64,000 bases of DNA from Chloroflexota bacterium (GCA_965219505.1 OZ244775.1:2077418-2141417), one strand, 5' to 3'. Shown: positions 2,890-36,442, counted from the first letter of the stretch. Notes: generated by a model not told the origin, from the sequence alone. A program made the numbers and translations.

Positions 2890-3882
2890 CTAGGCAACTA
2901 CCTGCGCGAACCCATAATCCAGCAAGATGGCTGCATCCGTAAAGTGCTGGGTAGATCCCAGGACTATTGCCAGCAAGTGACGCCCGTTTCGTTCCGCAAC
3001 GGCGACTAAGCAGTATCCCGCATCCGGAGTCCAACCGGGCTTTAGGCCATACGTGCCGTCATACGTCGACAGCAGTTTATTGAGATTCTGCGGCCCGTAC
3101 CACCCGTGCTCGTCCGTTGCCGTAAATTGAATGTGCTTTACGCTGGCATAGTCTACGATCCCAGGAGTCCGCTCGAGCGCGTAATTTGCGAGCGCTGCCA
3201 AGTCGTGCGCAGACGAGTAGTGAGGCAATGACTCTTCATCATAGCCGGTAGGATTGCTCAACTTTGTGTTCTGCAAGCCTAGCTCCTGAATTTTCGCGTT
3301 CATGGCTTGTACAAACTCATCGTAGCCGAGTGTGCCCTCTGCAACTGCGATCGCTGCGTCGTTACCGGAATCTAACATCATCCCGTATAGCAGTATTTCC
3401 AGGGTCACCACCTCGCCGGCAGCCAGTCCCATTACGTTAGGTTCCGCGCTCCCCGCACGTTCTGATACCAGCACCTTTTGGCTCGGCACGCTGCTTTCCA
3501 ACGCAATTATTGCAGTGAGAATTTTCGTGGTGCTTGCAGGCGCCCGCTGCTCGTGCTCATTCCTCGCATAAAGGACAGAATTGGTTGATAGATCTACAAG
3601 AATAGCAGACTGTGCCGTGAAGTTACTTAGAGCCGGGGCGGGATTCTCTTCCAACCATGCGTAGGAAAAGTGGGGTCGAGGTGGAGAAATCGTCGCCACA
3701 ATCTTTGCAGCAGCAATTGGCGTACTCTCAGCCACCGTAATTATTGCTCCCGATGGCTCCGGGGTGAGACGCGAAAGCAGCGCTACGCCCCCTAAGACCA
3801 CCACCATGGCAATAATCCAAACACGGAAGGCGGGCCGCCTGCCCGAAGGCGGGGTCGGCGCTTGATACCTGTACGGTTCCAT
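2890..3882 (-). CDS. D-alanyl-D-alanine carboxypeptidase (peptidase S11, PBP5-like), membrane anchored
   Basis: N-terminal TM segment (VWIIAMVVVLGGVALL). It has the SxxK motif ASTTK, the SxN motif DSGND, and the K[TP]G motif LKPGWT. Confidence 0.85.
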   Translation of the reverse strand: MEPYRYQAPTPPSGRRPAFRVWIIAMVVVLGGVALLSRLTPEPSGAIITVAESTPIAAAKIVATISPPRPHFSYAWLEENPAPALSNFTAQSAILVDLSTNSVLYARNEHEQRAPASTTKILTAIIALESSVPSQKVLVSERAGSAEPNVMGLAAGEVVTLEILLYGMMLDSGNDAAIAVAEGTLGYDEFVQAMNAKIQELGLQNTKLSNPTGYDEESLPHYSSAHDLAALANYALERTPGIVDYASVKHIQFTATDEHGWYGPQNLNKLLSTYDGTYGLKPGWTPDAGYCLVAVAERNGRHLLAIVLGSTQHFTDAAILLDYGFAQVVA

Positions 3883-4349
3883 CCGAGTCGATCTACGTAT
3901 TCAATCGAGAACGTCACACTCTCTTTTTGGTCGTTCGTGAAAAGACCGGCCGACATCCGAGAGTTTCTTATTAACAGAGTAATCTACGCAGTTCTTCGTT
4001 TCACCCTCAACGCATCTGCAAGACTATGTGCAGTACAAAACTGCTCTGCTGCATGGCCCAGGCTACGAAGAGATGTACATCATCACAAAGAGATACGCGT
4101 CAGCACAAATGCACTGCGGCACTATATCTCTAAACCCAGGCTGACGTGCCTTTAGCAAGCAAGACGAGGGACGATGGCAGACACGGGTCCGAAATCGCCT
4201 AGGCAAGAAGCAGACACTATATGCCTCTCACTTGCTTAGGCCCCCTGTTGCGAAGAGCAACAAGGGAAGGACACCTGCACCTGAACGGCCTAAACAGGAC
4301 AACACCTGAAGGTGAATGGGGCCCAGAAGTCCCGATGTTCCAGGCCGGG

Positions 4350-5288
4350 CTATTCAACAAGCCCCGTGCGGTCCACACTCTCCACAAAATAACGTTGCGT
4401 AAACAGATAGACTATTAGTGGTGGCATAATCACAAGGAATGACGCGGCCATAATTACCGCCTCGTTAAATTCATCCCCCGCGCCTTGGCCGGCTAACATC
4501 TGCAACAACGCCGCACTTAGAATGGAGAGCCGTAACGGCAGAGTGAAGTTATTTTGGTCAAAGAGATAAATTGTCGGTTCGAAGAAGTCGTTCCAATGCC
4601 ATACCAGAGAAAAGAGGAAGACAACAATAATCGCTGGCGCTGCCAATGGAAGCATGATACGCCAATACACACTGAACGGCCCAGCTCCATCAATACGAGC
4701 CGCATCCTCCAACTCATACGGCAAGTTTCTGAAGAACTGACGAAACACCAGGATAAAGAGTGCACCTCTGAGACCGTGCCCAAACAGCGACGGCATCAGG
4801 AAGGGGAAGTACGTATCCATGAACCCGAGGTTTCGATAGAGAATGAAGAGAGGCACGATAATGGTTTGTGGTGGCACCAAGAAAGTAAATAGGACAAGCA
4901 AGAAGAGGACATCGCGCCCCGGAAACGGGATACGAGCAAAACCATACGCAACAAATGAGCAGGCTACGGTCTGCAATATGCCTGATCCGAGCGAGATAAT
5001 GATGCTATTTCGCGCTGCCTGCCAATAGAGCATACCGCTTATGGCAAGCTCATAGTTTCTCCAGAAGATGGTACGAGGAATCCATAGGACCGTGAGGTCA
5101 GCCAAATCCGCAACCGTCTTCAGCGAGGTCGAAAACATGTAAATTACGGGAAAGAGGAATACAAAGCAAACATTGATCAGGATGATATACGTGGCAATGC
5201 GCAGGAAGAACCTCTCCCACCACTTGCGCGACGTCAGTGCACCCAATACACCTTGGCGCTGCCGTATGACAAATACCGAATCAGCCAT
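4350..5288 (-). CDS. Carbohydrate ABC transporter permease, MalG-like (pair 1)
   Basis: Polytopic membrane protein with the EAA loop EDAARIDGAGPFSVYWRIMLP. Confidence 0.9.
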   Translation of the reverse strand: MADSVFVIRQRQGVLGALTSRKWWERFFLRIATYIILINVCFVFLFPVIYMFSTSLKTVADLADLTVLWIPRTIFWRNYELAISGMLYWQAARNSIIISLGSGILQTVACSFVAYGFARIPFPGRDVLFLLVLFTFLVPPQTIIVPLFILYRNLGFMDTYFPFLMPSLFGHGLRGALFILVFRQFFRNLPYELEDAARIDGAGPFSVYWRIMLPLAAPAIIVVFLFSLVWHWNDFFEPTIYLFDQNNFTLPLRLSILSAALLQMLAGQGAGDEFNEAVIMAASFLVIMPPLIVYLFTQRYFVESVDRTGLVE

Positions 5289-5300
5289 GCTAGGTACTCC

Positions 5301-6275
5301 CTACCGTTCACCAGCGTAGAATACAAAGCGGCTTGAAATCACCAAAGCGAGCGCCATAAATAAGAAGATCGAGGCAAAGTACATCCAGCCCAAAGCCGCC
5401 GCATAGCCAAGCCGGAAATCTCGGGTCAGGCCCACGGTCTGAATGTAGGTAAGTACTTCATTGAATGGGTCGGTGAAGGAGTCAACGATGGTATAGACCA
5501 CATTGACCAGAATCACCGGAGAGAGCATTGGCAGCGTAATACGCCAGAAAATCTGCCAGCCGGAAGCGCCATCGGTCTTTGCAGCTTCACGCATTGTAAG
5601 CGGGACGCTATGTAGCCCTGCCACGAAGATGAGGATTTGCACACCGGTTCGCCAGAGCACTAAGGTAACACGATTTACCAGGTCGAGCACCCAATCGGCA
5701 ATCGTTCCTTGTAGATAGGTGAACACTACCTCACTCAACGTCTGTACGCTTACACCAATAGCTTCCGTACTAACACCCTCACCAAAAAGACGGCGGATAA
5801 CAATCGCTGAGCCAATCACCACCGGCATGAATAGCAGCATGCGGAACACACCGCGACCAGGCATCTCCTGCACCACGAGAATTGAAACAAAAAGTGAGAA
5901 GACTAGAATAATAGGCAGGTCCGACAACAGGTTCGCTACCGTTTTAGTGAACAAGGGCAGGAAGTGAATGTCTTCTAAGAAAGGCTCTGCGTAGTTTTCC
6001 CAACCTATGAAGGTTAACTTGAGCTCAGAGCTTGTAATCTTGACATTGTGAAAACTGACGTAAAGCGACTGAAACAACGGCCATGCCAGAAAGATCAAGA
6101 ATCCAACAATCCACGTGCTGATATAGAAATACCCATCCAAACCACGTTGGAACTTGTACGTCAGGCGTACTCCAGCCGCCGACAGGACTACGCGAATCGA
6201 CAAGATGCACGCAGGAACCACAAACGCTAGCCCCGTGAGTATAGCCACCCACGTAAAGTTATCTTCAAATTGCAT
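5301..6275 (-). CDS. Sugar ABC transporter permease, MalF-like (pair 1)
   Basis: Polytopic membrane protein with the EAA loop REAAKTDGASGWQIFWRITLP. It lies 12 nt upstream of the MalG-like gene. Confidence 0.9.
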   Translation of the reverse strand: MQFEDNFTWVAILTGLAFVVPACILSIRVVLSAAGVRLTYKFQRGLDGYFYISTWIVGFLIFLAWPLFQSLYVSFHNVKITSSELKLTFIGWENYAEPFLEDIHFLPLFTKTVANLLSDLPIILVFSLFVSILVVQEMPGRGVFRMLLFMPVVIGSAIVIRRLFGEGVSTEAIGVSVQTLSEVVFTYLQGTIADWVLDLVNRVTLVLWRTGVQILIFVAGLHSVPLTMREAAKTDGASGWQIFWRITLPMLSPVILVNVVYTIVDSFTDPFNEVLTYIQTVGLTRDFRLGYAAALGWMYFASIFLFMALALVISSRFVFYAGER

Positions 6276-6280
6276 GGCAG

Positions 6281-8737
6281 TTACCTCCGCGGCGGAATAA
6301 TGAGATAGTTCTGACCCTCGACCGCCTTATCGCCGTCAGTATAGCGACGCGTCTTGTAGTTGACTATAACCCGTGTCCCGTCCTCATACACGGTCTCATA
6401 GACACCATCTGCAATCTGTCGATGGTCCTCCATAAACTGATTCACCGTATAACCCAACTGTCTGACAAATAACTCGTATTCATCAACAATCTGGGGCTCC
6501 CAGTCAGCAAACCGAGATGAGTAAAGACGATTGTACTGAGTCCGGGTAAGGAGCACGCTCGGATTAGTAGTGAGCTCAAACGTGGGCAACGCACCATACT
6601 CGATGGCACGTAGGAATTCATCACGGTCGCTCCGGAGATTGCTCTCATCGCCCGTGTAGCGCACAAGCCCGTGCACTGCCAACGGGAAGAACGGCACTGT
6701 CTCCTCGCTAAACACATAATTGTAGCGATCCAACGGAATCCGGGTGAAGAAGTCGGTGGTATCGAGCATGTAGGCATTCGCGCCCTGAATGACGGCCGTA
6801 CCCGTTTCCTGTTTACTAATATCAATAATATCTTTCCATACGCCGACAAATTCCTGGCGGCTCAGCTTTGTTCCACCCTGTGCAGTATCGACGGGCTGTT
6901 GAATGGTCCGAACTTCATTAAGTAAGCCCCCTACCAGCACAATCAATAGCGCAGCAGTAACAATCGGCCGCCACAATGGGCCGCCAATCAACTGGCCCAA
7001 GATTGTATCGCCAGCGCGGCGCGTTCCAATCAAGACGACATAGAGTCCGGTCCCCACAATTCCCAACAACCCAAGGATCCTGAGCCCGATGGTGAAACCT
7101 GAACGACCGGAAAAGAGGATGGGATAGTGGTTCAGTGCTACCTTCCCAAAGAAACGGAACTCTACACCGGATATTCCATATTCACTCATCTTCGCGATAT
7201 CGACAGCCGCATAGCGGTCTCGCGCAATGTCCGGACGAAGGAGCTGAACTTCGGTGTGCGGCTCATCCTCTTTTCGTTTGAATCCCACATAATTGGTTGT
7301 AATCGGCAACCGGTTTGCCCCTCGAATCACATCCGTCAATGGGTTGAAACGCAAGAAGGAATCGATATTCCTGAAACCTAATAGGTAGTTGTCCTCAAGG
7401 TAAATGGGGATGTCATTGGCACTTGCGTAGTTTGAGACCGCCCGCAGTCCTTCATCGCCACCAAGCTTCCCCTCGGGAGGCAGCCGCTTAGGCAAAGACC
7501 AGTCGTATCCATCCTGGTTCCAGCCCACAAGGGTTACGCGCAAGTTATCAAGGCCCTGCTCCTCCTTAAGCGACTTGAGCATCCCCAATGCCTCGTCGAA
7601 CGTGGTCATGGTAATAAATTGATCGCGCGGAAACGCTTCACGCTGCATAGCCATGAAGATGCGAAGATGCAGGAACGGATTTGCCTCTTCAAGCTGCTGC
7701 AGGCCACGCTCACTCATCAGGAATTCGCGATAGGTTTTAGCCATACCGACATACGTGGCTTCGTATCCACGTAGGAACGCATACTGAACTTCGCGATCCC
7801 CTTGCACGCGTTCTTGCTCAAACCGTGTTACAAATGACGCACGCCGCAGCGGGAATGGCGCTTTGCGCCGGAAGATGAATTGTCCGGAGATCCGATTGTA
7901 GCCCAATGCGGTGTAGCTTAGTGCCGCACTGATGTTAACGTCCATGTCACCCTTGGTGACGATACCCGCGAATGCCGTACTCTCGCGCACCAATCCAAAG
8001 ACTGGTACCGGTATTGGCCCCTGCTGCTGCTCGGGCTCAAATGAAAAGAGCGCCGGGCCGTATACCTCTGCAAGGAAATTATGCCGATATTCAGGCTGCT
8101 CAGGCCGAAAGTGTACGATTGCCCCGGGACCGTCCGGCACAAAGAGATAGCCCTTCTCTTCGTTAGTAGCGGCGCCGAAAAACGGCAGTATGTCCAAGGT
8201 GACCAACAAGCGTTCCTCAGTTTCCCGAACGCTGTCCTCGTCAACACCCACAACCAGCCGGTCATCCTCCAGCCAATACGCGATGGTAAAGCCAACATTC
8301 AATTCGTCAAACAGATAGCCCACCCGAATACCGCCCTCAATGGGATCGAACGTCATCGAAGGCTGGTCTGAGATGATGTCGGCTACGCGGGTCTGCGTGC
8401 GCACTCTATCGGTATATTCAACAATCACTACCGAATTTAGGCGCGCCTTGATAGAGTCCGAGACGGCCTCAGGGTTTTCAAGTATTGGAGAACTTCGCCA
8501 CAGACGTCCATTCTCGCGGTCGTCGTACACCGCCAGTTGAGAATTCGTCTTATTCAGAAAGAGCGCCAGGTGCTCCACCTGACTAACTCTTTCGAAATCC
8601 GGGCCCAGTTCTTTAGCCGCATCCAGGGCTGGCGCTGCCGTAACCGGCGCGATCGGCAAAATGGTTAATAGCAGGATCAGCGGCACAAAATAACGTGCGA
8701 TTCGCCACCCCTTAGCGAGTGACAACTTCATAGACAA
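6281..8737 (-). CDS. 818-aa secreted/membrane-tethered protein of unknown function (possibly DUF5696-like; unverified)
   Basis: Signal-peptide-like N-terminus (FVPLILLLTILPIAPVTAAPA). Two hydrophobic helices are inserted at about aa 548-606 (FTIGLRILGLLGIVGTGLYVVLIG ... GPLWRPIVTAALLIVLVGGLL). I recognise no catalytic motif. The start overlaps the upstream gene by 26 nt. Confidence 0.75.
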   Translation of the reverse strand: MSMKLSLAKGWRIARYFVPLILLLTILPIAPVTAAPALDAAKELGPDFERVSQVEHLALFLNKTNSQLAVYDDRENGRLWRSSPILENPEAVSDSIKARLNSVVIVEYTDRVRTQTRVADIISDQPSMTFDPIEGGIRVGYLFDELNVGFTIAYWLEDDRLVVGVDEDSVRETEERLLVTLDILPFFGAATNEEKGYLFVPDGPGAIVHFRPEQPEYRHNFLAEVYGPALFSFEPEQQQGPIPVPVFGLVRESTAFAGIVTKGDMDVNISAALSYTALGYNRISGQFIFRRKAPFPLRRASFVTRFEQERVQGDREVQYAFLRGYEATYVGMAKTYREFLMSERGLQQLEEANPFLHLRIFMAMQREAFPRDQFITMTTFDEALGMLKSLKEEQGLDNLRVTLVGWNQDGYDWSLPKRLPPEGKLGGDEGLRAVSNYASANDIPIYLEDNYLLGFRNIDSFLRFNPLTDVIRGANRLPITTNYVGFKRKEDEPHTEVQLLRPDIARDRYAAVDIAKMSEYGISGVEFRFFGKVALNHYPILFSGRSGFTIGLRILGLLGIVGTGLYVVLIGTRRAGDTILGQLIGGPLWRPIVTAALLIVLVGGLLNEVRTIQQPVDTAQGGTKLSRQEFVGVWKDIIDISKQETGTAVIQGANAYMLDTTDFFTRIPLDRYNYVFSEETVPFFPLAVHGLVRYTGDESNLRSDRDEFLRAIEYGALPTFELTTNPSVLLTRTQYNRLYSSRFADWEPQIVDEYELFVRQLGYTVNQFMEDHRQIADGVYETVYEDGTRVIVNYKTRRYTDGDKAVEGQNYLIIPPRR

Positions 8738-10844
8738 CCTCCCAGATGAAGCGGATCACCCGCGACGACATGAAGTAACTAAGAGCTGAAATACCAAAGA
8801 TTGCGACCATCCCCATAACATTCAGGAAGCTCACACCTGCAGCCCGCTTGAACTCAAAGTCGTGCACAACCTTGACTTGCAGATAGATGAGCGCTCCCAT
8901 CCACCAATACATCAAGCCCTGGGCGAAGCCATATAGCGCACTCTCATCCGTGGTGAGCACGTTCGACACCAGCGCCAATGGCAAAGCGATAATGATGTAC
9001 GGTTGCAAACAGTATGCAGTCGTAGCTGCCACTACTTTCGGCGATCCTTCACCGTAGAAAATCGCACTCACGCCGTAATTCGCGATTACCCAGACCAAGA
9101 AGGGCACAAGAATTCGCGAGACCTCAAGGACAAAGTTGATATCCTCGGGATCAATGCTGGAGTAATGAAAGCTCACAGTGTTAAGCGTAAGCATTCGAAC
9201 TATGATAGCAAGACCCAGAAGAGTCCACACCGTCCACCATGTAGAGTCTTCACGTAGAGCCCAGAAGGTCTCCATTGGGTCGCGCAAGACCCCAACCGCC
9301 TGACGGTAGACCTTGTACCAAGTACTCTCCTGCTTGAGGATGCCCCGCTGGAAGCCATACGCAAAGATACGACGCGTGCCTCGCGGAATTACGATGATGG
9401 CGCCGATCCCCAAGAAGACGTAAAGCATGAAGAGTCCGAAATTCGCACGCATCCATAAGTAACGCGCTTCTGAGTAAGACTTTGCGTATTCATCCTTATC
9501 GTAGCCTCTGAAGTACTCGACCATCGCGTCTTGGTAGCGCTCTTGGCGGTATAGGGCCTTGCCAAGGGCGCTATGCGCGAGGTACATGTTCGCATCGAGC
9601 TTGAGGACTTGCTGCCATAGGTTGGCGGCCTCGTCGTATCGGCCGTCCCAATAGAACTTGCTCGCAGAGTGGACCAATCTGGCAAAGAGCGTGGGCCGGT
9701 ACACCTGAATGTTGTTGCGAATGGCATCCAGGATATATAGGGACCCTTCCGCATCCGTCACCACACTCGTGGGGTATCCAAGCTGTCCCTGCTGCACCCC
9801 ACGACCGCCAAATGCCAGCAAGGGCTCACCATCCTGGTCGTATTGATAAACCTTTGCTGAGTTGGCATCAACGACGGTGATGATTCCCGATTCATTGACG
9901 TTCACATCGGAGAAGCGTGGGAATTGGGTTCGCCTACCGGCTCCTTGACGCTCGCCGTAAAACTTCAGCGAGTCCTCCTTGAAAAATCGCATGTAAACGG
10001 CTACAGACGTCGAGTGCGGATAGACATTCACACCCACCGGACTCAGCTTCTGAAGCTGGTCCTTAACCGCTGTCGCCACGACCGTGTAGAGGAAACCGTC
10101 TTCGGAGAGGAACAAATTAGAATGCGGTGTGGGCTGTGGCAGGAAAATCTTCCGGCGTTGGTCCTGCGTTGCAAACATACTCACAATCAGTCTGCGCAGA
10201 CTGAAATCCAGTCGTGTAGCCCCAAAGAAGCCACGGAAGTTACCCTGTCCATCGAGCACGATGATGCCAAGATTGCTCCCAGCCTCCAAAGTGTAGATGC
10301 GCCCACTCCGGTCCACCACCAGCTTACTTGGCGCGAACGTATGGTCGATGGGGATTAGTGTTGTTGCGGGCTTGAAGAACTCATCAATGAAGTTGCCTTC
10401 CGGGTCCAGACGGAGGATGCGGTTGTTACCCGTATCCGCTACGAATATATTTCCGTCGGGATCAACATAGACTCCTTCAGGCTTACTCAGATTGCTGACT
10501 TCCATGAGATACTCGCCTTCCTGAGAGAACTTGAGTATCCGGTCGTTGCCTGTGTCAGCCAGCCATAGGTTTTCCTCGTGGTCGAGGAATAGGTCCGATG
10601 GCTCCTTGAAGGCGCCAGTCGGCAAGTGAATGCCGTTGATTTCTTTCTCAAAGATGTAGGGCAGTGGCGACGGTACCCGCTGCCGGCGGGGATCAATCGT
10701 ATAAGACAACTTTGGATCAAGCTCCAAAGCAGACACCGTCCCGGCAGACGTCAGGATTAGCCAAACAGCCGCTAGCCCTGCCAGCACTGCCTTTATTCTT
10801 GACCCTCTATGTCCAAACATTTTTGCCATTCCCTTACCCGCCAT
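8712..10844 (-). CDS. NHL-repeat beta-propeller + TPR + C-terminal Yip1-type membrane domain fusion protein
   Basis: It has a signal peptide and six NHL-like blades, e.g. LWLADTGNDRILKF, IFVADTGNNRILRL, IITVVDANSAKVYQY, LYILDAIRNNIQVY. A TPR-like segment follows (YDEAANLWQQVLKLDANMYLAHSALGKALYRQERYQDAMVEY). The last roughly 240 aa contain about 5 TM helices. Confidence 0.8.
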   Translation of the reverse strand: MAGKGMAKMFGHRGSRIKAVLAGLAAVWLILTSAGTVSALELDPKLSYTIDPRRQRVPSPLPYIFEKEINGIHLPTGAFKEPSDLFLDHEENLWLADTGNDRILKFSQEGEYLMEVSNLSKPEGVYVDPDGNIFVADTGNNRILRLDPEGNFIDEFFKPATTLIPIDHTFAPSKLVVDRSGRIYTLEAGSNLGIIVLDGQGNFRGFFGATRLDFSLRRLIVSMFATQDQRRKIFLPQPTPHSNLFLSEDGFLYTVVATAVKDQLQKLSPVGVNVYPHSTSVAVYMRFFKEDSLKFYGERQGAGRRTQFPRFSDVNVNESGIITVVDANSAKVYQYDQDGEPLLAFGGRGVQQGQLGYPTSVVTDAEGSLYILDAIRNNIQVYRPTLFARLVHSASKFYWDGRYDEAANLWQQVLKLDANMYLAHSALGKALYRQERYQDAMVEYFRGYDKDEYAKSYSEARYLWMRANFGLFMLYVFLGIGAIIVIPRGTRRIFAYGFQRGILKQESTWYKVYRQAVGVLRDPMETFWALREDSTWWTVWTLLGLAIIVRMLTLNTVSFHYSSIDPEDINFVLEVSRILVPFLVWVIANYGVSAIFYGEGSPKVVAATTAYCLQPYIIIALPLALVSNVLTTDESALYGFAQGLMYWWMGALIYLQVKVVHDFEFKRAAGVSFLNVMGMVAIFGISALSYFMSSRVIRFIWEVVYEVVTR

Positions 10845-10871
10845 AGGAACAGTCCCTCTGCGCTACTAGGT

Positions 10872-11732
10872 TTATGCCTTGATTCCCGAATGTGCCATGG
10901 TGGCAATCACTCGCCGTTGCACTAACGTAAACAGTACCACTGGCGGCGTGATCATAATGAATGTCGCTGCCGCATATGCGCCCTGTCGGGCCACTGAGCC
11001 CTGGCTGATCAAAGTCTGCAAAGCGATAGGCAAGGTCCGCATCGATTCCGTCCGTGTGAACACCAGAGGCGCCCAGATATCGTTCCACGTTGCAACGAAA
11101 ATAATGATCACCAGCGTGGCCCATGCAGGAGTTACCAATGGCATAATGACACGCCAGAACACAGTCCACTCCGAAGCCCCGTCTATTTTGGCCGACTCAA
11201 TGAGTGCCGCAGGTATCTGCTCCATAAATTGCTTCATCAAGAAGAGCGCGTACGGAATGGCGAGGTTAGGGAGAACCAGCGCAAAGTAGGTATCGATGAT
11301 ACCGAGCTGGTAGACCACTAAGTACCGCGGAATCGCCGTTACTTGCGCTGTAAACATGAGCGCCGCAATGACAACCATGAACATCGCATTGCGCCCCGGA
11401 AATTCATGCTTCGCCATCGGATAGGCAGCCAGGCTCGCCAGCAACACACCGCCGATAACCGTGCAGAAGGCGACAAATACACTATTGAAAATGTACCTAA
11501 TAAACGGCACGTTGAGTGAGTATGTTGCAATCAGAAGATCCTGGAAATTCCGCAGGGTAGGATTTCGCACGATGAAGCGAGGCGGAAAGAGAAAGAGCTC
11601 ATCGATTGGCTTCAGTGCGTGTGATACCACGAAAATCAGTGGCAACGACATAAATGCAGCGAGAATAGTCAACACCGCGATGGTCGTAAACTCACCACTC
11701 GTGATCTTGAATTTGCCAACTCTAATTATCAT
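10872..11732 (-). CDS. Carbohydrate ABC transporter permease, MalG-like (pair 2)
   Basis: EAA loop IESAKIDGASEWTVFWRVIMP; polytopic membrane protein. Confidence 0.9.
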   Translation of the reverse strand: MIIRVGKFKITSGEFTTIAVLTILAAFMSLPLIFVVSHALKPIDELFLFPPRFIVRNPTLRNFQDLLIATYSLNVPFIRYIFNSVFVAFCTVIGGVLLASLAAYPMAKHEFPGRNAMFMVVIAALMFTAQVTAIPRYLVVYQLGIIDTYFALVLPNLAIPYALFLMKQFMEQIPAALIESAKIDGASEWTVFWRVIMPLVTPAWATLVIIIFVATWNDIWAPLVFTRTESMRTLPIALQTLISQGSVARQGAYAAATFIMITPPVVLFTLVQRRVIATMAHSGIKA

Positions 11733-11754
11733 TTACCGCTTCCCCTTCCTTAGG

Positions 11755-12720
11755 CTACTCATCCTTGGTGGAAAGCAGACGCAACGCGCCCTGCCCGACA
11801 CCAAAGGTAATGATGAAGAGTATCACGGCAATTGCAGCCGCATAACCCATTTCAAATCGGATAAATGCATAGTCGTAAAGGTGCGAAAGAATCATATGCG
11901 CTGCATAGAGTGGGCTGGGGAGGCCGGCCAGCGAGAGGGAAATCTCGAACCCGGCCGAAAACATCAGCACCACCGCATTGATGACGCCAAACAGCACCTG
12001 CGGTTTCATGGAAGGCAAGGTAATGTACCACATTTCCTGTAGTGGATGTGCGATGCCGTCCACTTTTCCAGCTTCGTACAATTCCGTATTCACTGTCTGC
12101 AAACCGGCAAGGAATACCAGGAAGTTATTGCCCATACTCATCCACAACATGACGAACATGATTACTGGCAACATTGTCCGCTGATCGATGAGCCACAGGA
12201 ACGGCTCCTGAATGAACCCCATGCGCATCAAGAAATAATTCATATACCCGTAACGGTCGCCGGAAAAGACAATCCGCCACACCACCGCCATGGCAATCGC
12301 GCTCGTCAGTGAGGGCGCGTAGAACGCCAAGGCGTAGATCGTGCGCACACGAATCTGGTTTATGAACCAGGCAAGAAGGAAGGAGGCTGTCAGGCTGACC
12401 GGTCCCGTAATAAACGCGAAGAAAAGCGTATTACGGATCGACAACACAAAGATGTCGTCCTCAAGGAACAGCAAGCGATAGTTGGACCAGCCTATAATCC
12501 GGGGCGGCTCTAGCATATTGAAATAGGTAAAGCTAAGCCAGATAGCCACCCCTACAGGGATAATGAGGAAGGCAAAGAAGAAGATCATGTAGGGCAGCAA
12601 GAACGCGTACGACACACCATGTTGGGCAAGGATTCGATGCAAGCCCGTCTTTGGCTCTGCAACCGCTCGCGGCTGTGTCGTTGACTCTGCGCCCGGGCCG
12701 CTACTCTTTACTTCAGCCAT
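11755..12720 (-). CDS. Sugar ABC transporter permease, MalF-like (pair 2)
   Basis: EAA loop YEAGKVDGIAHPLQEMWYITLPSMKP. Its ATG shares one base with the upstream TAA stop (TAATG at 12720). Confidence 0.9.
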   Translation of the reverse strand: MAEVKSSGPGAESTTQPRAVAEPKTGLHRILAQHGVSYAFLLPYMIFFFAFLIIPVGVAIWLSFTYFNMLEPPRIIGWSNYRLLFLEDDIFVLSIRNTLFFAFITGPVSLTASFLLAWFINQIRVRTIYALAFYAPSLTSAIAMAVVWRIVFSGDRYGYMNYFLMRMGFIQEPFLWLIDQRTMLPVIMFVMLWMSMGNNFLVFLAGLQTVNTELYEAGKVDGIAHPLQEMWYITLPSMKPQVLFGVINAVVLMFSAGFEISLSLAGLPSPLYAAHMILSHLYDYAFIRFEMGYAAAIAVILFIITFGVGQGALRLLSTKDE

Positions 12721-15700
12721 TATTCCAGACCCCCTTTCGTCTTACTGAGATCAACATCTAGCCCGAACTCCTCGCGCTTGCGAATGAGTTCACGGTCGAT
12801 CTGCTTGACTGCTTCTTCTAGGGCTTCACGTGCGTTCCACCCCTGAAGCACCACGCGGTTCCAAGCATTGATGATGTGACGAGGCGTAAAGTAACCGCCT
12901 AAGGTAACCGGTTGCTCCTTGAACCAACGCCACTGCTCCTGGATAGCCTCGATATCTTTCTGCGGGAAGGGAAGTTGGTTTAAGGCCTTTATGTTGGCAG
13001 TGTTCCAACGCGCCTCCGTGCCGATCAGGGCCTCGAGCTCTTCACCGAAGCGCGCTTGGGCCCGCTCGGACGTCCACCATTTCGCCCACTCCCAGGCCTT
13101 GTCTTGTTTATCTGAATTATCCATGATCACCACGGCTTGACCATAGCCGCCTGAGGTCCGGTCTACTTGTCCGTCTGGTCGGCGTTTTCCGGGAAGCGGG
13201 CGCATTTCCCAGCGGCCTTCAAGCTCCGGCGCCGCAACGGACAAGAGAACGTAGGTAAAGAAGCCGGAGACGCCAATCGGCATCTCACCTGTCCGCATAC
13301 GGTTATAGAAGTCAGCTTGCTGCGTAATCTTGTAGTTAGTATAAAGTTCCGTCCACTCGCGGAAGCCGGCCAGGGCTTCCGGCGAGTCAAGGGCGCTCAG
13401 TCCTCTATTCGTATAGAAGTCTCCGCCGTTTTGGTAGAGGAAAGGCAGGAACCCCGGCACAAGGGACTCAGCCAAACCGTAGATGCCCCCGCCCGCGGAC
13501 ACGCCAACCGGCGGGAAGAAGAAGTCCATGCCGCGCTGCTGAAGCAGCCAGATCATGTTATATAAGTCTTGCCAGGTGTCGGGCGGAGTCAGGCCCAGTT
13601 CGCTGAAAATGTCTGTGCGGTAGAACATCATCAAGAAGTCCTGCGTTTCCGGTATTGCGTAGTCTCCGCCCTCCCAACGGAAGGGCAAGAGCGCCCCTGG
13701 ACGGAATCGCGTTGCTACCTCCTGATAGTCCAAGAACTTATTCATGTTGGCAACGCCGTTGCGTATCGCAAACTCCACGGGCACGTCCGGCAGCACACCG
13801 GTCGCCACGTCTGGCGTCACGCCGCTCGCCACCGAAAGCAGCAGCACATTTACCGAGCCCGCACTAAGCTGCGCCGGCGGGAACACCTGCAGGTTTACGG
13901 CAATGCCGCTCGCCGGCGTGAAGTCATCCTCGGTCATGTCCTTCATGATCATGCCCCATTCGCGGCCGCGCGCCACCCACACCGTAATGGTGTTGTCGTC
14001 ATCGCCGTAAATCGAGCCGACGCCGTAGTAATTCCGGACGAACGAACTTAGGAAATTCATGAAGCCGGCCCAACCCTTAAGGAAGATGTTGGCTTTGCCG
14101 ACCGGCAATTCCGTCTCAGGATTGGTGATCAAGAGATAGTCCAGCCAAAGCGGGTGCTCGCGCAGGTAGAGAAGCCACTGCGAAAGCCGCCCTTGACTTG
14201 CACTAAGGTCGCTCAAGCGCCGGGACATACTTTCGGGGTCACTAGCCATGTCTTCCAATTGGAAAGCGACTTCACCCAAGACATTGGCCACGTTCGGCTT
14301 CACGCCGTTATTGACCATGGTCATGTGGCCTACTTGGTCTCTAAGCAACGTGTAATTCGTAATCAAGCGCGGCACCAAGGTCGGAATACGGGAAGTGAGA
14401 CCGAATTCCATGTAGGGGTCAGGATTGACACCCGTAATCATCGTAATCTCACGCACCATGATCGACAGGTCGGTCACGACTTTATTGATGGCACGAATAG
14501 TCTCGGCAGAGGGACCAACGGTGACCTCCATCGTGAGGGTATGCCTCCCTTTCGTGAGATAGAAGAGGTAGGGCTCACCCTCGCCTGCTCCTTCTCCAAA
14601 GGGCACAACACGCCAATCACGGTCTTTGTCCGGCGTAAACAAGAAGCTGTTGAGTTCCTGGAATGGAACCTTGCCGTCTATGAGAATACGCCGAGCAGAA
14701 GGCAAGAAGCTTGCATACGCTTGCCAGCGCCGCCAGGCAATCTTGTAGAGTCCGTCTTCCGGTACCTCGAAATCCCAAGTAGCCGCTTGCAGAGCGCGGC
14801 GCCAACGATATGAACCATAAGCATTCAGGCGCACGTAGCCGGCAGAATATGGGTCTACCATTGGACCGGACGTGTATTCCATGCGGATGGTGGCCTCAGT
14901 CCGTTCAACCGGCATCTCAGCTTGGTGACGAATCAAGGTTTCACCCGCACTCTTATAGCCCCGCTCTTCGTACATCTTCAGAACTTCCGCATACGTCGGC
15001 GGCCGCGACGGCGAAACAAGGCGCATGCTGCGGATAGCTATCGGTTCGCGCACCGTAATGATGCGAAGCACGTGCTCGCCTTCAGTCAAGTAAAAGTCAA
15101 ACGGCCAGGGATACATGCCATCGCCATCGATGATGCGCACCGTCTCCCAACGTGGATTCTCCACTTGACCGGGACGTCTGTCGTTGCCCTGGTTGTCAGT
15201 GGTCGGCAATCCCTTGTCTTGCCAGAAGCGCACAAAGACTAGTCGCCGCGCCTCCAGGAACGGAAACTCACCATCTATTTGTATACGCCGCTGGATGGAG
15301 GCACGCTTGCCAGGCAGGGGATAATACTCGAGCTCAATGTTGTAGAGACCGGTCTTGGGCACCGTAAATCTCCACTCCATCCACTCAGTCTCTTCCTGCC
15401 AGTTGATAATTTCGCCCGTCTTGCCGCCGAGCTCACTTAGGATTTCCGGTTCCTGTCCGCGGAATCGAACAATATCCGTGTGGTCGATTGGGATCTCGAT
15501 GTTCTCAATCCACTCGTAGCCGTCCTTTGCGTACTCCTCAAGCGTCTCTGCGTAGTTATCCTCTAGCTTCACTTCGATCACGCCAGTGGCGTGTGTGATA
15601 AAGGTGCCCTCTTTCTCCTCTTCTGCGTCCTCTTCCTCCGCATTGTCTTTCGGCTGGCTCTGCTGTGCATAGACTGCAGCGGACGTGGAGGTGGGAATAG

Positions 15701-15830
15701 AAATGGTCAGCAGCATCACTGCGAGACCAACATTGATCCAGACAGACCACGCACGCAGATCGCGCAACGCACTGGGCATTCTGCCTATTGCCTGAAGGCT
15801 ATTAATTGTTCTCTCCAGGATTCTCATCAA
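12720..15830 (-). CDS. Giant (1036 aa) extracellular solute-binding protein with two N-terminal CBM-like modules
   Basis: N-terminal TM/signal anchor, then an acidic linker (EEEDAEEEKEG). Two related modules follow: WRFTVPKTGLYNIELEY...RRIQIDGEFPF...FYLTEGEHVLRI and WDFEVPEDGLYKIAWRR...RRILIDGKVPF...FYLTKGRHTLTM. The C-terminal roughly 430 aa resemble a family-1 sugar-binding protein (from ITVWVARG onward). Confidence 0.8.
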   Translation of the reverse strand: MMRILERTINSLQAIGRMPSALRDLRAWSVWINVGLAVMLLTISIPTSTSAAVYAQQSQPKDNAEEEDAEEEKEGTFITHATGVIEVKLEDNYAETLEEYAKDGYEWIENIEIPIDHTDIVRFRGQEPEILSELGGKTGEIINWQEETEWMEWRFTVPKTGLYNIELEYYPLPGKRASIQRRIQIDGEFPFLEARRLVFVRFWQDKGLPTTDNQGNDRRPGQVENPRWETVRIIDGDGMYPWPFDFYLTEGEHVLRIITVREPIAIRSMRLVSPSRPPTYAEVLKMYEERGYKSAGETLIRHQAEMPVERTEATIRMEYTSGPMVDPYSAGYVRLNAYGSYRWRRALQAATWDFEVPEDGLYKIAWRRWQAYASFLPSARRILIDGKVPFQELNSFLFTPDKDRDWRVVPFGEGAGEGEPYLFYLTKGRHTLTMEVTVGPSAETIRAINKVVTDLSIMVREITMITGVNPDPYMEFGLTSRIPTLVPRLITNYTLLRDQVGHMTMVNNGVKPNVANVLGEVAFQLEDMASDPESMSRRLSDLSASQGRLSQWLLYLREHPLWLDYLLITNPETELPVGKANIFLKGWAGFMNFLSSFVRNYYGVGSIYGDDDNTITVWVARGREWGMIMKDMTEDDFTPASGIAVNLQVFPPAQLSAGSVNVLLLSVASGVTPDVATGVLPDVPVEFAIRNGVANMNKFLDYQEVATRFRPGALLPFRWEGGDYAIPETQDFLMMFYRTDIFSELGLTPPDTWQDLYNMIWLLQQRGMDFFFPPVGVSAGGGIYGLAESLVPGFLPFLYQNGGDFYTNRGLSALDSPEALAGFREWTELYTNYKITQQADFYNRMRTGEMPIGVSGFFTYVLLSVAAPELEGRWEMRPLPGKRRPDGQVDRTSGGYGQAVVIMDNSDKQDKAWEWAKWWTSERAQARFGEELEALIGTEARWNTANIKALNQLPFPQKDIEAIQEQWRWFKEQPVTLGGYFTPRHIINAWNRVVLQGWNAREALEEAVKQIDRELIRKREEFGLDVDLSKTKGGLE

Positions 15831-16026
15831 TTTCCACCTTCACGCTACGAGCGAATTACCATAAGCCACAAGGCATATAGGTTTCGATTTACGTTCCTGT
15901 CCCACCACTGTCGACCAACCCAATCACCCGACGCACCATATTACAGTGTACCCTAGCACACGATTTTCACCATCGTCAAGTAATAGAGGTTACCTAATAG
16001 CCATCACAATTGATAGTCTTCCTCAC

Positions 16027-17031
16027 TTAGTCTTTGGCGTCTAGAGCAACTCGGAATCCAATGGCATGCGCATCGTAGCTCTTTGGACTTCCCCGGCTGG
16101 CGCACCTTGAATATCGTGTGGAGTCCTGCCAGCAGCCGCCGCGCACTACGCGGTAACGACCATATTCTGCCACTTGGGCTGCAATCCCGTCACTGCCCTC
16201 GGATCCGGGATACGTTCCTATGAAAGATGCCGTCCATTCCGCGACGTTCCCGGCCATATCCAATACCCCATAGGGGCTGGTGCCGTCGGGGTAAACCCCG
16301 ACGGGCGTGGGTGCCGCTACACCACCTTCCCAAACGTTGCCACAGGTGTAGCGAAATGTATCTCCCCAAGGAAACACCCTACCGTCCGTGCCGCGCGCCG
16401 CTTTCTCCCACTCCTCCTCCGTAGGCAAACGAAATGGATTCCCTGACTCTCCTGCCAGCCAATCGCAATACCCTACCGCCTCTTCCCAACTTACATCCCT
16501 TACCGGCTGGTTCAGGATCCAGGGATCAATGGTAGTGCCATCCCAGTAACCGCGGGGCGGCGCGCCACCGGAAAGCACAAAGGAGCGGAATTCTATATTC
16601 GTTACGAGATACCTGCCAATGGAGAATGATGGGAGCTCAACCGATCGCGCCGGCGTTTCCATGAGTACCGCGCCCCGCGTGGTACGTTGGAACTTCCTTT
16701 CGTCCTCGGCGCCGGCGTTGGCCGCTTCTAGTATCTGATCTACTTCGTCACTAGAAGTGCCCATTGTGAAAGCACCACCCGGTATGCGGGCCGTCATGGG
16801 TTCTAACGTGCGAATTCTCGGGTCGCCAAGATAAGAGAGGGCTTTCCCAACCGAGACGCGCTCCGCCACACTATATTGATTGGGCGTGGCGACCATTCGC
16901 ACAAGATCAATCAGCGCAATTTGCTTCTCGCGTTCACCCAACATCAAGAGCGCGCCATGAATACGCTCCCGCACATTGCTTTGCAGGTCAGACCAGATTT
17001 CCTGGCCGAGACGTTCCTCTGCAATGGCCAC
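16027..17031 (-). CDS. HEAT-repeat + FGE/SUMF1-family domain protein
   Basis: N-terminal HEAT-like repeats (ALLMLGEREK...GKALSYLGDPR). C-terminal SUMF1 hallmarks are GNVAEWT, YRVVRGGCW and IGFRVA. The canonical FGE C-x4-C pair is not visible; the sequence reads GGCWQDSTRYSRCASR. Confidence 0.8.
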   Translation of the reverse strand: MAIAEERLGQEIWSDLQSNVRERIHGALLMLGEREKQIALIDLVRMVATPNQYSVAERVSVGKALSYLGDPRIRTLEPMTARIPGGAFTMGTSSDEVDQILEAANAGAEDERKFQRTTRGAVLMETPARSVELPSFSIGRYLVTNIEFRSFVLSGGAPPRGYWDGTTIDPWILNQPVRDVSWEEAVGYCDWLAGESGNPFRLPTEEEWEKAARGTDGRVFPWGDTFRYTCGNVWEGGVAAPTPVGVYPDGTSPYGVLDMAGNVAEWTASFIGTYPGSEGSDGIAAQVAEYGRYRVVRGGCWQDSTRYSRCASRGSPKSYDAHAIGFRVALDAKD

Positions 17032-23580: not shown

Positions 23581-24459
23581 GTGAGACGATTTGACTATGC
23601 TGCTCCAACCCAAACCTATGAAGCCTGTGCGCTGCTGGCAGACCGCGGCGACGACGCGCGAGCGCTGGCGGGTGGTACAGATCTCATTGTGCAGATGAGG
23701 GAACGCGGACGCAAGGTTCCCCTCATCGTCAGCTTGCGCAATCTTGAGGATCTTAAGGGCATCAGCCAGAATGCCGACGGCACACTGACTATCGGTGCTA
23801 TGGCATCCGGGAATGAAGTGACCCACAGCCCGCTTGTGCAAAGTCACGCCTTTTTTGTAAGTGAAGGCGCGGAGCTTCTCGGTTCAATTCAGATCCGCAA
23901 TCGCGGCACGCTTGGTGGCAATGTGGGCAACGCCGCGCCAAGTGCCGATGCGGCCCCGCCCCTCGTGGCCGCTCATGCTACTGCCTGCATCGTTGGCAAG
24001 AAGGGCACGCGTGAGGCCCCCGTGGGCGACCTCATGACAGGACCGGGCCAACTTGCGCTTGAACCCGGAGAGCTAATTCAGTCTTTCACCGTGCCGGCTC
24101 AGCCTGCACACACCGGCACACGCTACGTGCGTCATGTGCCGCGGCGTGAGATGGATATCGCCGTGGTCGGGGTGGCAGCCCTTGTTACGCTGGAAGATGA
24201 CTTGGAAACCATCAAGGACGCCAGCGTCGTCCTCTCCGCCGTTGCACCCACCTGGCCGCATGCTACCACTGCGGAACAGGCACTTCGCGGCCAGCCGGTC
24301 AACGAAAAGACACTGGCAAATGCCGGCGAGGCGGCCGCGGCTGATTCGCGGCCGATCTCGGACGTCCGTGCATCGGCAGAATACCGCCGCATGATGGTAG
24401 ACGTCTACACACGTCGGGCCCTCACGACGGCTATCGAACGCGCCAGAGCGGCGAGCTAA
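23581..24459 (+). CDS. Xanthine-dehydrogenase-family FAD-binding (medium) subunit
   Basis: GTG start with a GGAGGA RBS. The FAD-binding motif RALAGGTDLIVQM is present. Confidence 0.9.
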   Translation: MRRFDYAAPTQTYEACALLADRGDDARALAGGTDLIVQMRERGRKVPLIVSLRNLEDLKGISQNADGTLTIGAMASGNEVTHSPLVQSHAFFVSEGAELLGSIQIRNRGTLGGNVGNAAPSADAAPPLVAAHATACIVGKKGTREAPVGDLMTGPGQLALEPGELIQSFTVPAQPAHTGTRYVRHVPRREMDIAVVGVAALVTLEDDLETIKDASVVLSAVAPTWPHATTAEQALRGQPVNEKTLANAGEAAAADSRPISDVRASAEYRRMMVDVYTRRALTTAIERARAAS

Positions 24460-24503
24460 CGACACCTATCGGCACAACTACATTTTTGGAGGCAGCAAGA
24501 GCG

Positions 24504-25031
24504 ATGGACTATCCGTTGCAACTAACGGTGAACGGTGTTCGAGTGAAGCGAATTGTTGAGCCGCAGGTGCGGCTTCTCGACTTCCTCCGCGAAGACTTGG
24601 GCCTTACCGGCGCGAAAGAAGGCTGTGGCACGGGTGACTGCGGCGCGTGCACCGTGCTCGTAGACGGTGAACCGCACCACTCCTGTCTTACTCTCGCCGT
24701 TGAAGCCGAGGACGCGGCGGTAACCACCGTCGAGGGACTTGGAAGCGATGGCAAGCTGAACGCGGTGCAATCCGCATTCGTTAGCGAAGGCGCAACGCAG
24801 TGCGGTATCTGCACTCCCGGCTTCGTGGTAATGGCAACCGCATACCTGCGCGACAATCCTAATCCCACCGACGATGAGTTGCGCATGGGTATTGCAGGCA
24901 ATTTATGCCGCTGCACCGGCTACGAACCCATTATGACTGCGCTACATTCTGTTATTGACGGCAAAGTAGAGTTGATCGAAGTGGCGCCGGAGCCACGGGA
25001 GCTTGTACCTGAGCCCGAAGGCGAAATCTAA
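24504..25031 (+). CDS. Xanthine-dehydrogenase-family (2Fe-2S) small subunit
   Basis: Cluster motifs GCGTGDCGACTV, CGICTPGFVM and CRCTGYEPI. ATG 24504 with GGAGG at 24488-24492 is preferred over the TTG at 24486 used by the ORF track. Confidence 0.9.
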   Translation: MDYPLQLTVNGVRVKRIVEPQVRLLDFLREDLGLTGAKEGCGTGDCGACTVLVDGEPHHSCLTLAVEAEDAAVTTVEGLGSDGKLNAVQSAFVSEGATQCGICTPGFVVMATAYLRDNPNPTDDELRMGIAGNLCRCTGYEPIMTALHSVIDGKVELIEVAPEPRELVPEPEGEI

Positions 25032-25086
25032 GGGCCTAAGCGCCTTCCACAGACTGCACGTCTAAATATCGCGAGGAGGAGGAACC

Positions 25087-35605: not shown

Positions 35606-36442
35606 ATGCCAAGCAACTTACTAGAGGTCTTTACGAATTGTTACGGCCGTTATGGAGTGCGCGCGGCGATAGATCTCGCGCCGCAGGCCGGCATCACCCA
35701 CCTCGAACTCGCCATGAAACAGCACGGCGGCGTGCTGGAGATTCCCGAGGACGTTGTCGCCAGTGAGAAGTTGGGTGACGAAGGCATTCAGAATCTAAAG
35801 AAAGAATTGGATGCGCACGGTCTCACCGTAATCAGCGCGAATGGGTCAGATAACCTCATGGACCCTGATGGATTTGCCCGTATTGCGGAACGGATGCGTC
35901 TTGCAGCAGGCATCGGCGCCAAGTATTTCGTCGGCTTGGGCGGCGAACCGGCTGAGGTAGATCGGAAAGACTTCTTTGACAAGATGGGGGCCATTGGCGA
36001 CGTGGCGGCCAGTCACGGACTGACCATTGCCCTTGAGACGCACCCGGGCATTACCCAAAACGCGGGTGCAATCTTAGACACCATGCAGGCCCTGCAGCAT
36101 GATGCCATCCGCATTAATTTCGACACGGGCAACATCCTCTTTTACAACGAAGGGGCCGATGTTTACAAGCAGCTAGAGACGGTGATGGACTACGTGGTGC
36201 ACATGCATTTGAAGGACAGTCGCGGCGGCTATCGCGACTGGTACTTCACGGCAATGGGGGATGGCGGCGCTGTAGACTTTGCGCGAATAGGCGAAATAAC
36301 CAACAACGCAGGTTTCTTCGGCCCGTACAGCTTGGAGATCGAGGGCATTAGGGACGAGCCGGAACCGACTTTGGAGCAGCGCCAGGAGCGCGTCGTCCGC
36401 AGCGTGGAACACCTGCGGTCCGTCGGATTCCTCTCTAATTGA
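35606..36442 (+). CDS. Sugar phosphate isomerase/epimerase (xylose-isomerase-like TIM barrel)
   Basis: Contains ALETHPG, INFDTGNILFY and VHMHLKD. Confidence 0.8.
   Translation: MPSNLLEVFTNCYGRYGVRAAIDLAPQAGITHLELAMKQHGGVLEIPEDVVASEKLGDEGIQNLKKELDAHGLTVISANGSDNLMDPDGFARIAERMRLAAGIGAKYFVGLGGEPAEVDRKDFFDKMGAIGDVAASHGLTIALETHPGITQNAGAILDTMQALQHDAIRINFDTGNILFYNEGADVYKQLETVMDYVVHMHLKDSRGGYRDWYFTAMGDGGAVDFARIGEITNNAGFFGPYSLEIEGIRDEPEPTLEQRQERVVRSVEHLRSVGFLSN

Follow-up and report, generated by a model that had tools for sequence, protein, structure and literature searches.

Here, we describe a conserved seven-gene operon that combines a giant solute-binding protein (SBP) with two pairs of ATP-binding cassette (ABC) permeases and two large membrane-anchored proteins, in a 64,000-nt stretch of DNA from a Chloroflexota bacterium (GCA_965219505.1 OZ244775.1:2077418-2141417; hereafter the window, with positions counted from its first letter). 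The operon, also called the cassette below, occupies positions 4350-15830, and its genes are labelled in 5' to 3' order SBP, P1a, P1b, YIP, DUF5696, P2a and P2b, where the four P labels denote permeases, YIP is a protein with NHL, TPR and Yip1 domains, and DUF5696 carries the name of its Pfam family (Table 1). Gene content, gene order, conservation, folds and hydropathy-based topology are established. From the domain content, we give a somewhat better than even chance to the reading that the operon encodes a self-contained surface machine, built of two modules, that captures, trims and imports a glycan.

All seven open reading frames (ORFs) of the cassette lie on the minus strand and encode 1036, 321, 286, 710, 818, 324 and 312 aa. 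From their coordinates, the junctions come to -1, 22, 27, -26, 5 and 12 nt; the co-directional ORFs and spacings given in a preliminary description of the stretch match this ORF map exactly. The SBP gene probably starts at ATG 15827 (1035 aa), three bases past the listed TTG, because an AAGGTGG ribosome-binding site stands just upstream and homologue P0065 has 1035 aa. Likewise, ATG 8731 is the probable start of the DUF5696 gene (816 aa), because its close full-length homologues P0001-P0014 have 816 aa, and its overlap with the YIP gene would then shrink to 20 nt. Promoter-like and terminator-like sites within the operon do not exceed the shuffled expectation (12 vs 10.5±2.6 and 19 vs 13.5±3.7, respectively). 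The operon promoter would lie in the 196 nt upstream of the SBP gene, where a scan for consensus promoters yielded no confident sigma-70 site. At its downstream end, a gap of 467 nt (3883-4349) separates the operon from a co-directional Peptidase_S11 D-Ala-D-Ala carboxypeptidase gene (2890-3882, minus strand). In this gap, no site resembling a terminator was called, and transcription may read through from the operon into this gene.

The cassette is widespread. Relatives were scanned in one genome per species, yielding at least 573 stretches with a relative, and the best 80 loci were labelled by BLAST. The order SBP-P1a-P1b-YIP-DUF5696-P2a-P2b, on which the preliminary description had made its proposal depend, is complete in 71 of these 80 loci, with spans of 10.2-12.2 kb, and most of the incomplete cassettes are truncated by contig ends. 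The hosts belong to three phyla, namely Chloroflexota, Bacillota (including Paenibacillus, Cohnella, Bacillus, Gracilibacillus, Lachnospiraceae, Ruminococcaceae and Limnochordia) and Spirochaetota (Treponema, Spirochaetales), so that the earlier mention of giant-SBP/Yip1/DUF5696 neighbourhoods in Paenibacillus was correct and understated. Gut and rumen Clostridia also carry the cassette, several genomes hold two or three copies, and polysaccharide-degrading Paenibacillus and Cohnella have several paralogous copies per genome. Even DUF5696 members with only 20-25% identity, the most distant of the family, are found in this seven-gene cassette. A Paenibacillus mendelii locus, reached through its DUF5696 protein (32% identity), shows the same gene order, overlapping or very short junctions, and a MalK-type ATPase gene ahead of the cassette. 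Proteins of the window share 29-51% identity with their P. mendelii positional orthologues (P1a 46%, P1b 51%, P2a 33%, P2b 42%) and 24-28% with their paralogues in the same cassette (24-27% for P1a vs P2a); orthologues are closer than paralogues, and the permease duplication is therefore older than the spread of the cassette.

The giant SBP carries a MalE-like binding fold behind an N-terminal anchor, two beta-sandwiches and a helical stalk. Pfam matches are SBP_bac_1 (aa 637-926 only, E=1.1e-18) and SBP_bac_8 (E=1.1e-14). The AlphaFold2 (AF2) model, built on 41 homologues, has a predicted local distance difference test score (pLDDT) of 83.3 and a predicted TM-score (pTM) of 0.78, and each sandwich domain in it is a helix plus a beta-sandwich. 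The MalE-like part matches oligosaccharide SBPs of carbohydrate uptake transporter 1 (CUT1) systems by Foldseek (E 1e-21 to 1e-17, target TM-score (TMt) 0.7-0.84). At least 697 homologues were found at E<=1e-10 (90% clustering), almost all of 950-1100 aa. A whole-model Foldseek search gave SBP matches only, and the sandwiches were searched via a sub-alignment profile: sandwich 1 (profile positions 53-131) has weak PDB matches to members of carbohydrate-binding module (CBM) families CBM35/CBM6 (2w47, 2w1w, 2y8k), and for sandwich 2 the profile matches the CBM35 domain of cycloisomaltooligosaccharide glucanotransferase (5x7g, E=1.4e-3). Golvesin_C is matched by 11 of 11 SBP family members (best E=5.6e-6), with the window protein below the gathering score, and CBM_35 is matched sub-threshold by 4 of 11 (best E=1.9e-3). 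The protein had been described as CBM-fused; the two sandwich domains are indeed present in the AF2 model, but their CBM kinship is weak, sub-threshold and not established. The MalE-like fold is the most conserved subdomain (mean pairwise identity 42%) and the stalk the least (25%). An initial idea that the sandwiches are unusually conserved was dropped, since their 28-36% identity is below that of the SBP fold.

The DUF5696 protein, in which the preliminary description had suspected a DUF5696-like protein, matches PF18952 with E=1.7e-149 and 499.6 bits (cutoff 25.6), in two stretches with a transmembrane (TM) hairpin between them. The family comprises 7634 clusters at 50% identity. A 42-sequence family profile searched against PDB sequences found two members of glycoside hydrolase family 129 (GH129), the alpha-N-acetylgalactosaminidase NagBb (E=3.3e-17) and the 3,6-anhydro-D-galactosidase ZgGH129 (E=3.9e-12), and hhalign relates the family to GH129 with 98.3% probability. 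The AF2 model (pLDDT 85.6, pTM 0.83), which includes an N-terminal anchor helix, matches GH129 structures best by Foldseek (5opq, E=1.5e-29, TMt 0.71; 5wzn/5wzp, ~1e-25, TMt ~0.75; GH129 range 0.71-0.76), followed by GH101 (~1e-15) and then GH36 and GH31. By profile and model comparison, DUF5696 is thus a remote relative of GH129/GH101 glycosidases with a three-domain fold. Although the remote homology is clear, we call it GH129-like and not GH129, because identity to the best GH129 PDB structures is just 13-15% and the family is kept apart in Pfam. It is not a well-characterised family, as no paper on 'DUF5696' or 'PF18952' was found in the literature. An N-terminal TM or signal anchor is present in 187 of 207 DUF5696 family proteins examined. 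GH129 enzymes are exo-acting glycosidases (PMC6923384, PMC8106489).

DUF5696 proteins of other lengths and settings were also seen. Longer ORFs of 868-992 aa occur at loci L063, L067, L069, L070, L079 and L083, several of which are from Paenibacillus; the Paenibacillus ORFs of this length match the query from about residue 127-150 on, and their N-terminal regions differ. In L084 (9001-12240), a 1079-aa protein from Defluviitaleaceae has an extra DUF6273 domain. The DUF5696 group nearest to the window clade (L001, 2916-12211; 736 aa, ~39% identity) lies outside a cassette, near P2-like permeases, a 563-aa SBP and a FAD/Trp-halogenase-like protein with a SEC-C motif.

The TM hairpin noted in the preliminary description within the 818-aa protein is real and restricted to one Chloroflexota clade. 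Hydropathy places its two segments at aa 552-570 and 588-606 (peaks 2.15 and 2.08), and in the AF2 model the two helices span 545-569 and 587-611 (816-aa numbering). It is missing from the other 37 of the 42 sequences in the DUF5696 family alignment, and among the 207 family proteins it occurs only in 15 close Chloroflexota clusters, plus locus L004. The hairpin directly adjoins the position of a near-conserved Asp in a 'DY' motif. The beta-alpha loops of TIM barrels make up the catalytic face; since the hairpin is inserted in the beta4-alpha4 loop, the model suggests that the catalytic face in the window clade lies near the membrane and faces it.

Pfam finds NHL (1.4e-15), TPR_16 (4.2e-8) and Yip1 (PF04893, aa 518-685, 4.2e-9; 36.9 bits, cutoff 28.6) domains in YIP. 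Predicted TM segments lie at aa 19-37, 469-487, 536-554, 569-587, 604-622 and 670-688 (hydropathy); five of them fall at aa 469-688, four of these inside the Yip1 match. The propeller and TPR segment are thus predicted to be extracytoplasmic and the Yip1 domain to lie in the membrane. Among natural PDB entries, the YIP ectodomain profile matches the PknD sensor propeller best (1rwi, E=2.7e-51, 5 stretches), with further matches to Pizza designs and TRIM NHL domains, so that the propeller is of the PknD-sensor type and probably non-enzymatic. YIP is a single fused gene in 46 related loci, and separate propeller and Yip1 genes occur in 33. The preliminary description had assigned no catalytic motif to the 710-aa and 818-aa proteins; still, no residues are assigned, but the picture is sharpened to a PknD-type propeller in the one and a GH129/GH101-like fold in the other.

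BPD_transp_1 is matched by all four permeases, each of which keeps the EAA motif (read from the sequences) and has six to seven predicted TM segments. NCBIfam models class P1a as UgpA/GlcT-like, P1a and P2a as UgpA/MalF-like, and P1b and P2b as UgpE/MalG-like, all below equivalog cutoffs; P2a orthologues in L084 and L085 have no Pfam match recorded. A tblastn search with the P. mendelii cassette ATPase found no ABC ATPase in the 64-kb window. The operon had been described as ATPase-less, which is true of the window but is a property of the lineage and not of the system, because a MalK-type ATPase gene stands directly upstream of 17 of the 71 complete cassettes, with an overlap into the SBP gene in P. 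mendelii. The MalK-type ATPases of Paenibacillus carry OB/TOBE domains. An ATPase gene at a separate genomic site is common in CUT1 systems, and the cassette ATPase of the window organism is presumably encoded elsewhere in its genome.

Two modules can be discerned in the cassette. Across 55 cassettes, the distance matrices of all seven proteins co-vary (mirror-tree, r=0.76-0.87), and of the 35 possible 3/4 partitions the split {SBP, P1a, P1b} vs {YIP, DUF5696, P2a, P2b} has the highest within-minus-between residual correlation. The matrices are weak evidence for this split, as operon linkage alone could yield such a signal. Locus L005 (Chloroflexota, 6073-14074) contains the second module alone, as YIP-DUF5696-P2a-P2b, preceded by a 584-aa weakly GHL10/GHL6-like protein, and L055 has the modules permuted (YIP-DUF5696-P2a-P2b-SBP-P1a).

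In the mechanism that we favour, the machine would sit on the outer face of the cytoplasmic membrane, with SBP, YIP and DUF5696 each held by an N-terminal anchor and, by hydropathy, the bulk of each protein outside. Module A would consist of the giant SBP, P1a and P1b: the SBP would be held by its N-terminal helix, the two CBM35/6-like sandwiches on the helical stalk would hold a polymer or large oligosaccharide, and the MalE-like domain would pass an oligosaccharide to the P1a/P1b channel. YIP, DUF5696, P2a and P2b would form module B. Here, the membrane-anchored DUF5696 protein would probably remove a terminal sugar or otherwise trim the captured glycan at the surface, and P2a/P2b would import its product. 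The Yip1 domain is probably an assembly or scaffold subunit of the transporter, with the PknD-like propeller and TPR segment as putative extracytoplasmic binding surfaces. Both channel pairs would be powered by a MalK/MsmX-type ATPase, whose gene is directly upstream in some lineages and would be elsewhere in the genome here. We infer the glycan substrate, hydrolysis, pairing of channels with ligands and physical assembly from these features.

Several findings weigh against this reading, beginning with the active site. We take NagBb to use Asp435, at the end of beta4, as its nucleophile and Glu478, after beta5, as its acid/base, and ZgGH129 presumably uses Asp486 as its nucleophile, as implied by the title of PDB entry 8rzk. 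The GH129 acid/base Glu position aligns, with moderate confidence, with a conserved Asn of DUF5696 in a 'GGNxY' motif. The nucleophile position is not confidently alignable: HMMER, MAFFT, a clade-free hidden Markov model and hhalign differ by 4-8 residues near beta4, and NagBb D435 falls on a non-conserved DUF5696 column by HMMER (which puts D443 on the 'DY' Asp of the family) and four residues ahead of the 'DY' Asp by hhalign. Catalytic residues were left unassigned because of this disagreement around beta4. The 'DY' column holds D in 48 of the 55 cassettes, N in 5 and H in 2, and aligns to His ('ALNHY', aa 531-540) in the window clade, where an alternative Asp follows the hairpin. All this would suit a non-hydrolytic DUF5696 protein, at least in the window clade, that acts as a glycan receptor with a glycosidase fold or as a structural or organising subunit: the acid/base Glu is replaced by Asn, the hhalign register shows no conservation at the nucleophile equivalent, the 'DY' Asp is not always kept, and the most invariant motif, GYLFVPDGPG, is in the N-terminal sandwich, off the barrel strands. 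We nevertheless regard such a pseudo-enzyme as unlikely. A polar set typical of active sites is invariant or near-invariant in the 55 cassettes and kept in the window (D202, R337, W406, H689, N700 and E713, together with position 678, which is mostly Asp in the family and Glu in the window protein), and the GH129 alignment near beta4 and beta5 is of low confidence. Moreover, D617, just past the hairpin in 'PVDTAQGGTKLSR' (window; aa 610-630, 818-aa numbering; P0022 counterpart 'WPDTNDRYPLSR'), could, from the alignment, be the 'DY' Asp displaced by the hairpin insertion.

The capture step and the division of labour between the channels raise further points of this kind. The similarity of the SBP sandwiches to CBMs is weak, which leaves a CBM fusion plausible but not established; the window cassette has only one SBP for its two channel pairs; and a normal-size SBP flanks 34 of the 71 cassettes. 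The DUF5696 protein could instead dock, catalytic face down, on P2a/P2b in place of an SBP, so that glycoside cleavage would be coupled directly to import of the sugar set free, with the giant SBP feeding P1a/P1b and the Yip1 protein joining both translocators in one supercomplex. Each module is indeed ordered as a large extracytoplasmic protein, a MalF-like and a MalG-like permease, which makes two tandem units with DUF5696 at the usual position of an SBP gene; no SBP was found within ~8-10 kb of the lone module of L005 or, as a second SBP, near the cassette in the window; given the hairpin, the catalytic face of the window-clade proteins must be able to reach the membrane; and partial correlations link YIP to DUF5696 (0.26) and to P2a (0.27). 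However, those of DUF5696 itself with the permeases are low (P2a 0.10, P2b 0.16), the module signal is explicable by operon linkage alone, and the normal-size SBPs that adjoin other cassettes could serve P2a/P2b. To our knowledge, no ABC importer has an enzyme as its docking partner, and we think it improbable that this joint arrangement is the right one.

The genomic surroundings also count against the favoured reading and point to no particular substrate, as the immediate neighbours in the window are not sugar genes and no glycosidase family flanks the cassette consistently in other loci (GH38, GH43, GH106, PF10091 and GH130 vary by locus). The cassette might rather turn over, recycle or remodel the envelope or extracellular polysaccharide of the cell itself. 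In favour of this, the window cassette stands alone, with neither a regulator nor another glycosidase, beside a D-Ala-D-Ala carboxypeptidase gene; all of its components are membrane-tethered; and the relatively good conservation of the SBP could mean a common ligand. Paralogous cassettes in Paenibacillus and Cohnella, however, lie beside AraC/LacI regulators and catabolic glycosidases, as is typical of nutrient glycan loci, and BPD_transp_1 permeases belong to importers (type I ABC), which leaves a role in the own envelope with a small probability. Finally, the absence of an ATPase or regulator marking a single system in the window might suggest that two ordinary sugar ABC operons and two unrelated genes came to lie side by side by chance, a reading that is excluded for practical purposes by synteny in 71 loci of three phyla at 20-99% identity, by the overlapping or very short junctions in the window and P. 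mendelii, and by the co-variation of all seven proteins.

CUT1-type ABC sugar importers include MalEFGK2, UgpBAEC and MsmEFGK (TC 3.A.1.1). The cassette resembles them in its family-1 MalE-like SBP, in its MalF/UgpA- and MalG/UgpE-like permeases with EAA loops and, in Paenibacillus, in its MalK-type ATPase. It differs from them in having two different permease pairs and one giant SBP in one conserved operon, in the ~560 extra residues of this SBP (anchor, two sandwiches and stalk), and in two large non-transporter membrane proteins that are obligate parts. Gram-positive polysaccharide utilisation loci combine a surface-tethered glycosidase, an ABC importer and a regulator; like these, the cassette would let extracellular capture or cleavage be followed by ABC import, with flanking AraC/LacI regulators in other loci, but it has a fixed seven-gene core with the same components at every locus, whereas the classified carbohydrate-active enzymes around it vary. 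In its working, the cassette would resemble a CUT1 importer joined to a glycan utilisation locus of the Gram-positive type, and would be categorically new in mechanism only if direct coupling of enzyme and permease were true.

Single components have relatives elsewhere. DUF5696 shares with GH129 (5wzn, 5opq) and GH101 the three-domain architecture with a (beta/alpha)8 barrel, and with GH129 a 'GW..GYD..P..LP....GG..G' stretch after beta2. Unlike GH129, it has Asn at the acid/base position and an uncertain nucleophile register, constitutes a separate Pfam DUF, and is mostly anchored and nearly always inside a transporter cassette. The YIP propeller resembles the six-bladed NHL propeller of the PknD sensor in being extracytoplasmic and membrane-tethered, and is coupled to a TPR segment and Yip1 domain, whereas that of PknD is coupled to a Ser/Thr kinase. 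YknW, a member of the Yip1 family, modulates how the ABC transporter YknXYZ assembles (PMC4887032) and is the only bacterial precedent found for a Yip1 protein as an assembly subunit. As in YknWXYZ of Bacillus, a Yip1-domain membrane protein is encoded with an ABC transporter here, a likeness known from the Yip1 domain alone; unlike the cassette, YknYZ is a MacB-type exporter and not a binding-protein-dependent importer, and YknW is without an NHL propeller or TPR ectodomain. Literature searches on Yip1 with SBP, permease or glycoside hydrolase, on NHL-Yip1 and on GH129 with ABC transporters returned nothing on this system, and no functional study of SBP, YIP or DUF5696 was found. The cassette matches no described importer or locus, in agreement with the earlier view that the system is undescribed. 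A solution would probably establish a new family of glycoside hydrolases and give a function to a large family of ~1000-aa 'solute-binding proteins', and would show the role of Yip1 beside a type I ABC importer and the reason for paired permease sets. Direct enzyme-permease coupling, if true, would be a new principle of nutrient uptake in bacteria without an outer membrane.

Table 1. Features of the seven-gene cassette and its upstream region (positions in the 64,000-nt window)
Feature	Position	Strand	Description
Giant SBP, 1036 aa	12720..15830	-	TM anchor, acidic disordered linker, two beta-sandwiches, four-helix stalk, MalE-like fold
SBP beta-sandwich 1, aa 93-272	15015..15554	-	CBM35/CBM6/Golvesin_C-like; AF2 secondary structure
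SBP beta-sandwich 2, aa 280-437	14520..14993	-	Tandem repeat of domain 1; AF2 model
SBP helical stalk, aa 441-557	14160..14510	-	AF2 helices 441-466, 485-506, 513-530, 532-557
SBP MalE-like binding fold, aa 561-1021	12768..14150	-	Pfam, AF2, Foldseek
Permease P1a, 321 aa	11755..12720	-	MalF/UgpA-type, six predicted TM, EAA motif EAGKVDG
Permease P1b, 286 aa	10872..11732	-	MalG/UgpE-type, six TM, EAA motif ESAKIDGA
YIP, 710 aa	8712..10844	-	N-terminal TM/signal anchor, NHL beta-propeller, TPR segment, multi-TM Yip1 domain
YIP NHL beta-propeller ectodomain, ~aa 60-390	9675..10667	-	Pfam, profile search
YIP Yip1-type membrane domain, ~aa 469-690	8775..9440	-	Pfam, hydropathy
DUF5696 protein, 818 aa	6281..8737	-	N-terminal anchor, beta-sandwich, (beta/alpha)8 barrel, C-terminal beta-sandwich
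TM helical hairpin, ~80 aa	6899..7099	-	Insertion between DUF5696 barrel strand beta4 and helix alpha4
Permease P2a, 324 aa	5301..6275	-	Divergent MalF/UgpA-type, EAA motif EAAKTDGA
Permease P2b, 312 aa	4350..5288	-	MalG/UgpE-type, EAA motif EDAARIDGA
Upstream intergenic region, 196 nt	15831..16026	-	Holds AAGGTGG ribosome-binding site; operon promoter presumed here

Flanking ORFs in other loci (124 upstream, 69 downstream) were scanned with Pfam and include further SBPs, MalK-type ATPases, AraC/LacI/ROK regulators and assorted glycoside hydrolases; AraC/LacI regulators and glycosidases flank many Paenibacillus and Clostridia loci. A 566-577-aa protein without a Pfam match follows directly after the P. 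mendelii cassette (L002, 14353-16083). A Pfam scan of neighbours in the window found no regulator or CAZy-classified enzyme. An attempt to name the substrate from neighbouring genes was given up, as the flanking glycosidases are inconsistent and the window neighbours are unrelated housekeeping genes.

The next gene upstream of the cassette (16027-17031, minus strand) encodes an FGE-sulfatase domain. At a distance of 12-25 kb are two sulfatases, an orphan SBP, two GFO/IDH/MocA oxidoreductases, a xylose-isomerase-like TIM-barrel protein and a large esterase; the genes of this set other than the SBP gene are at 27675-28763 (+), 28975-30390 (+), 33918-35402 (+), 35606-36442 (+), 36544-38733 (-) and 40053-41189 (+). 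Together, these genes hint at catabolism of sulfated glycans in the organism. The orphan SBP (32278-33675, plus strand) has an N-terminal twin-arginine motif (TRRRL) and a LAAC lipobox-like motif; it was rejected as a partner of P2a/P2b, its identity to the small SBPs beside other cassettes being just generic (20-27%). Between the first sulfatase gene and the orphan SBP gene stands a DUF815 AAA-type ATPase gene (30616-31989, plus strand). A molybdopterin dehydrogenase gene set (23581-27408, plus strand) encodes a FAD-binding subunit, a 181-aa ORF and a 773-aa molybdenum cofactor-binding subunit of the CO-dehydrogenase/xanthine-dehydrogenase type, and a gene with a MoaA C-terminal domain is present at 65-706.

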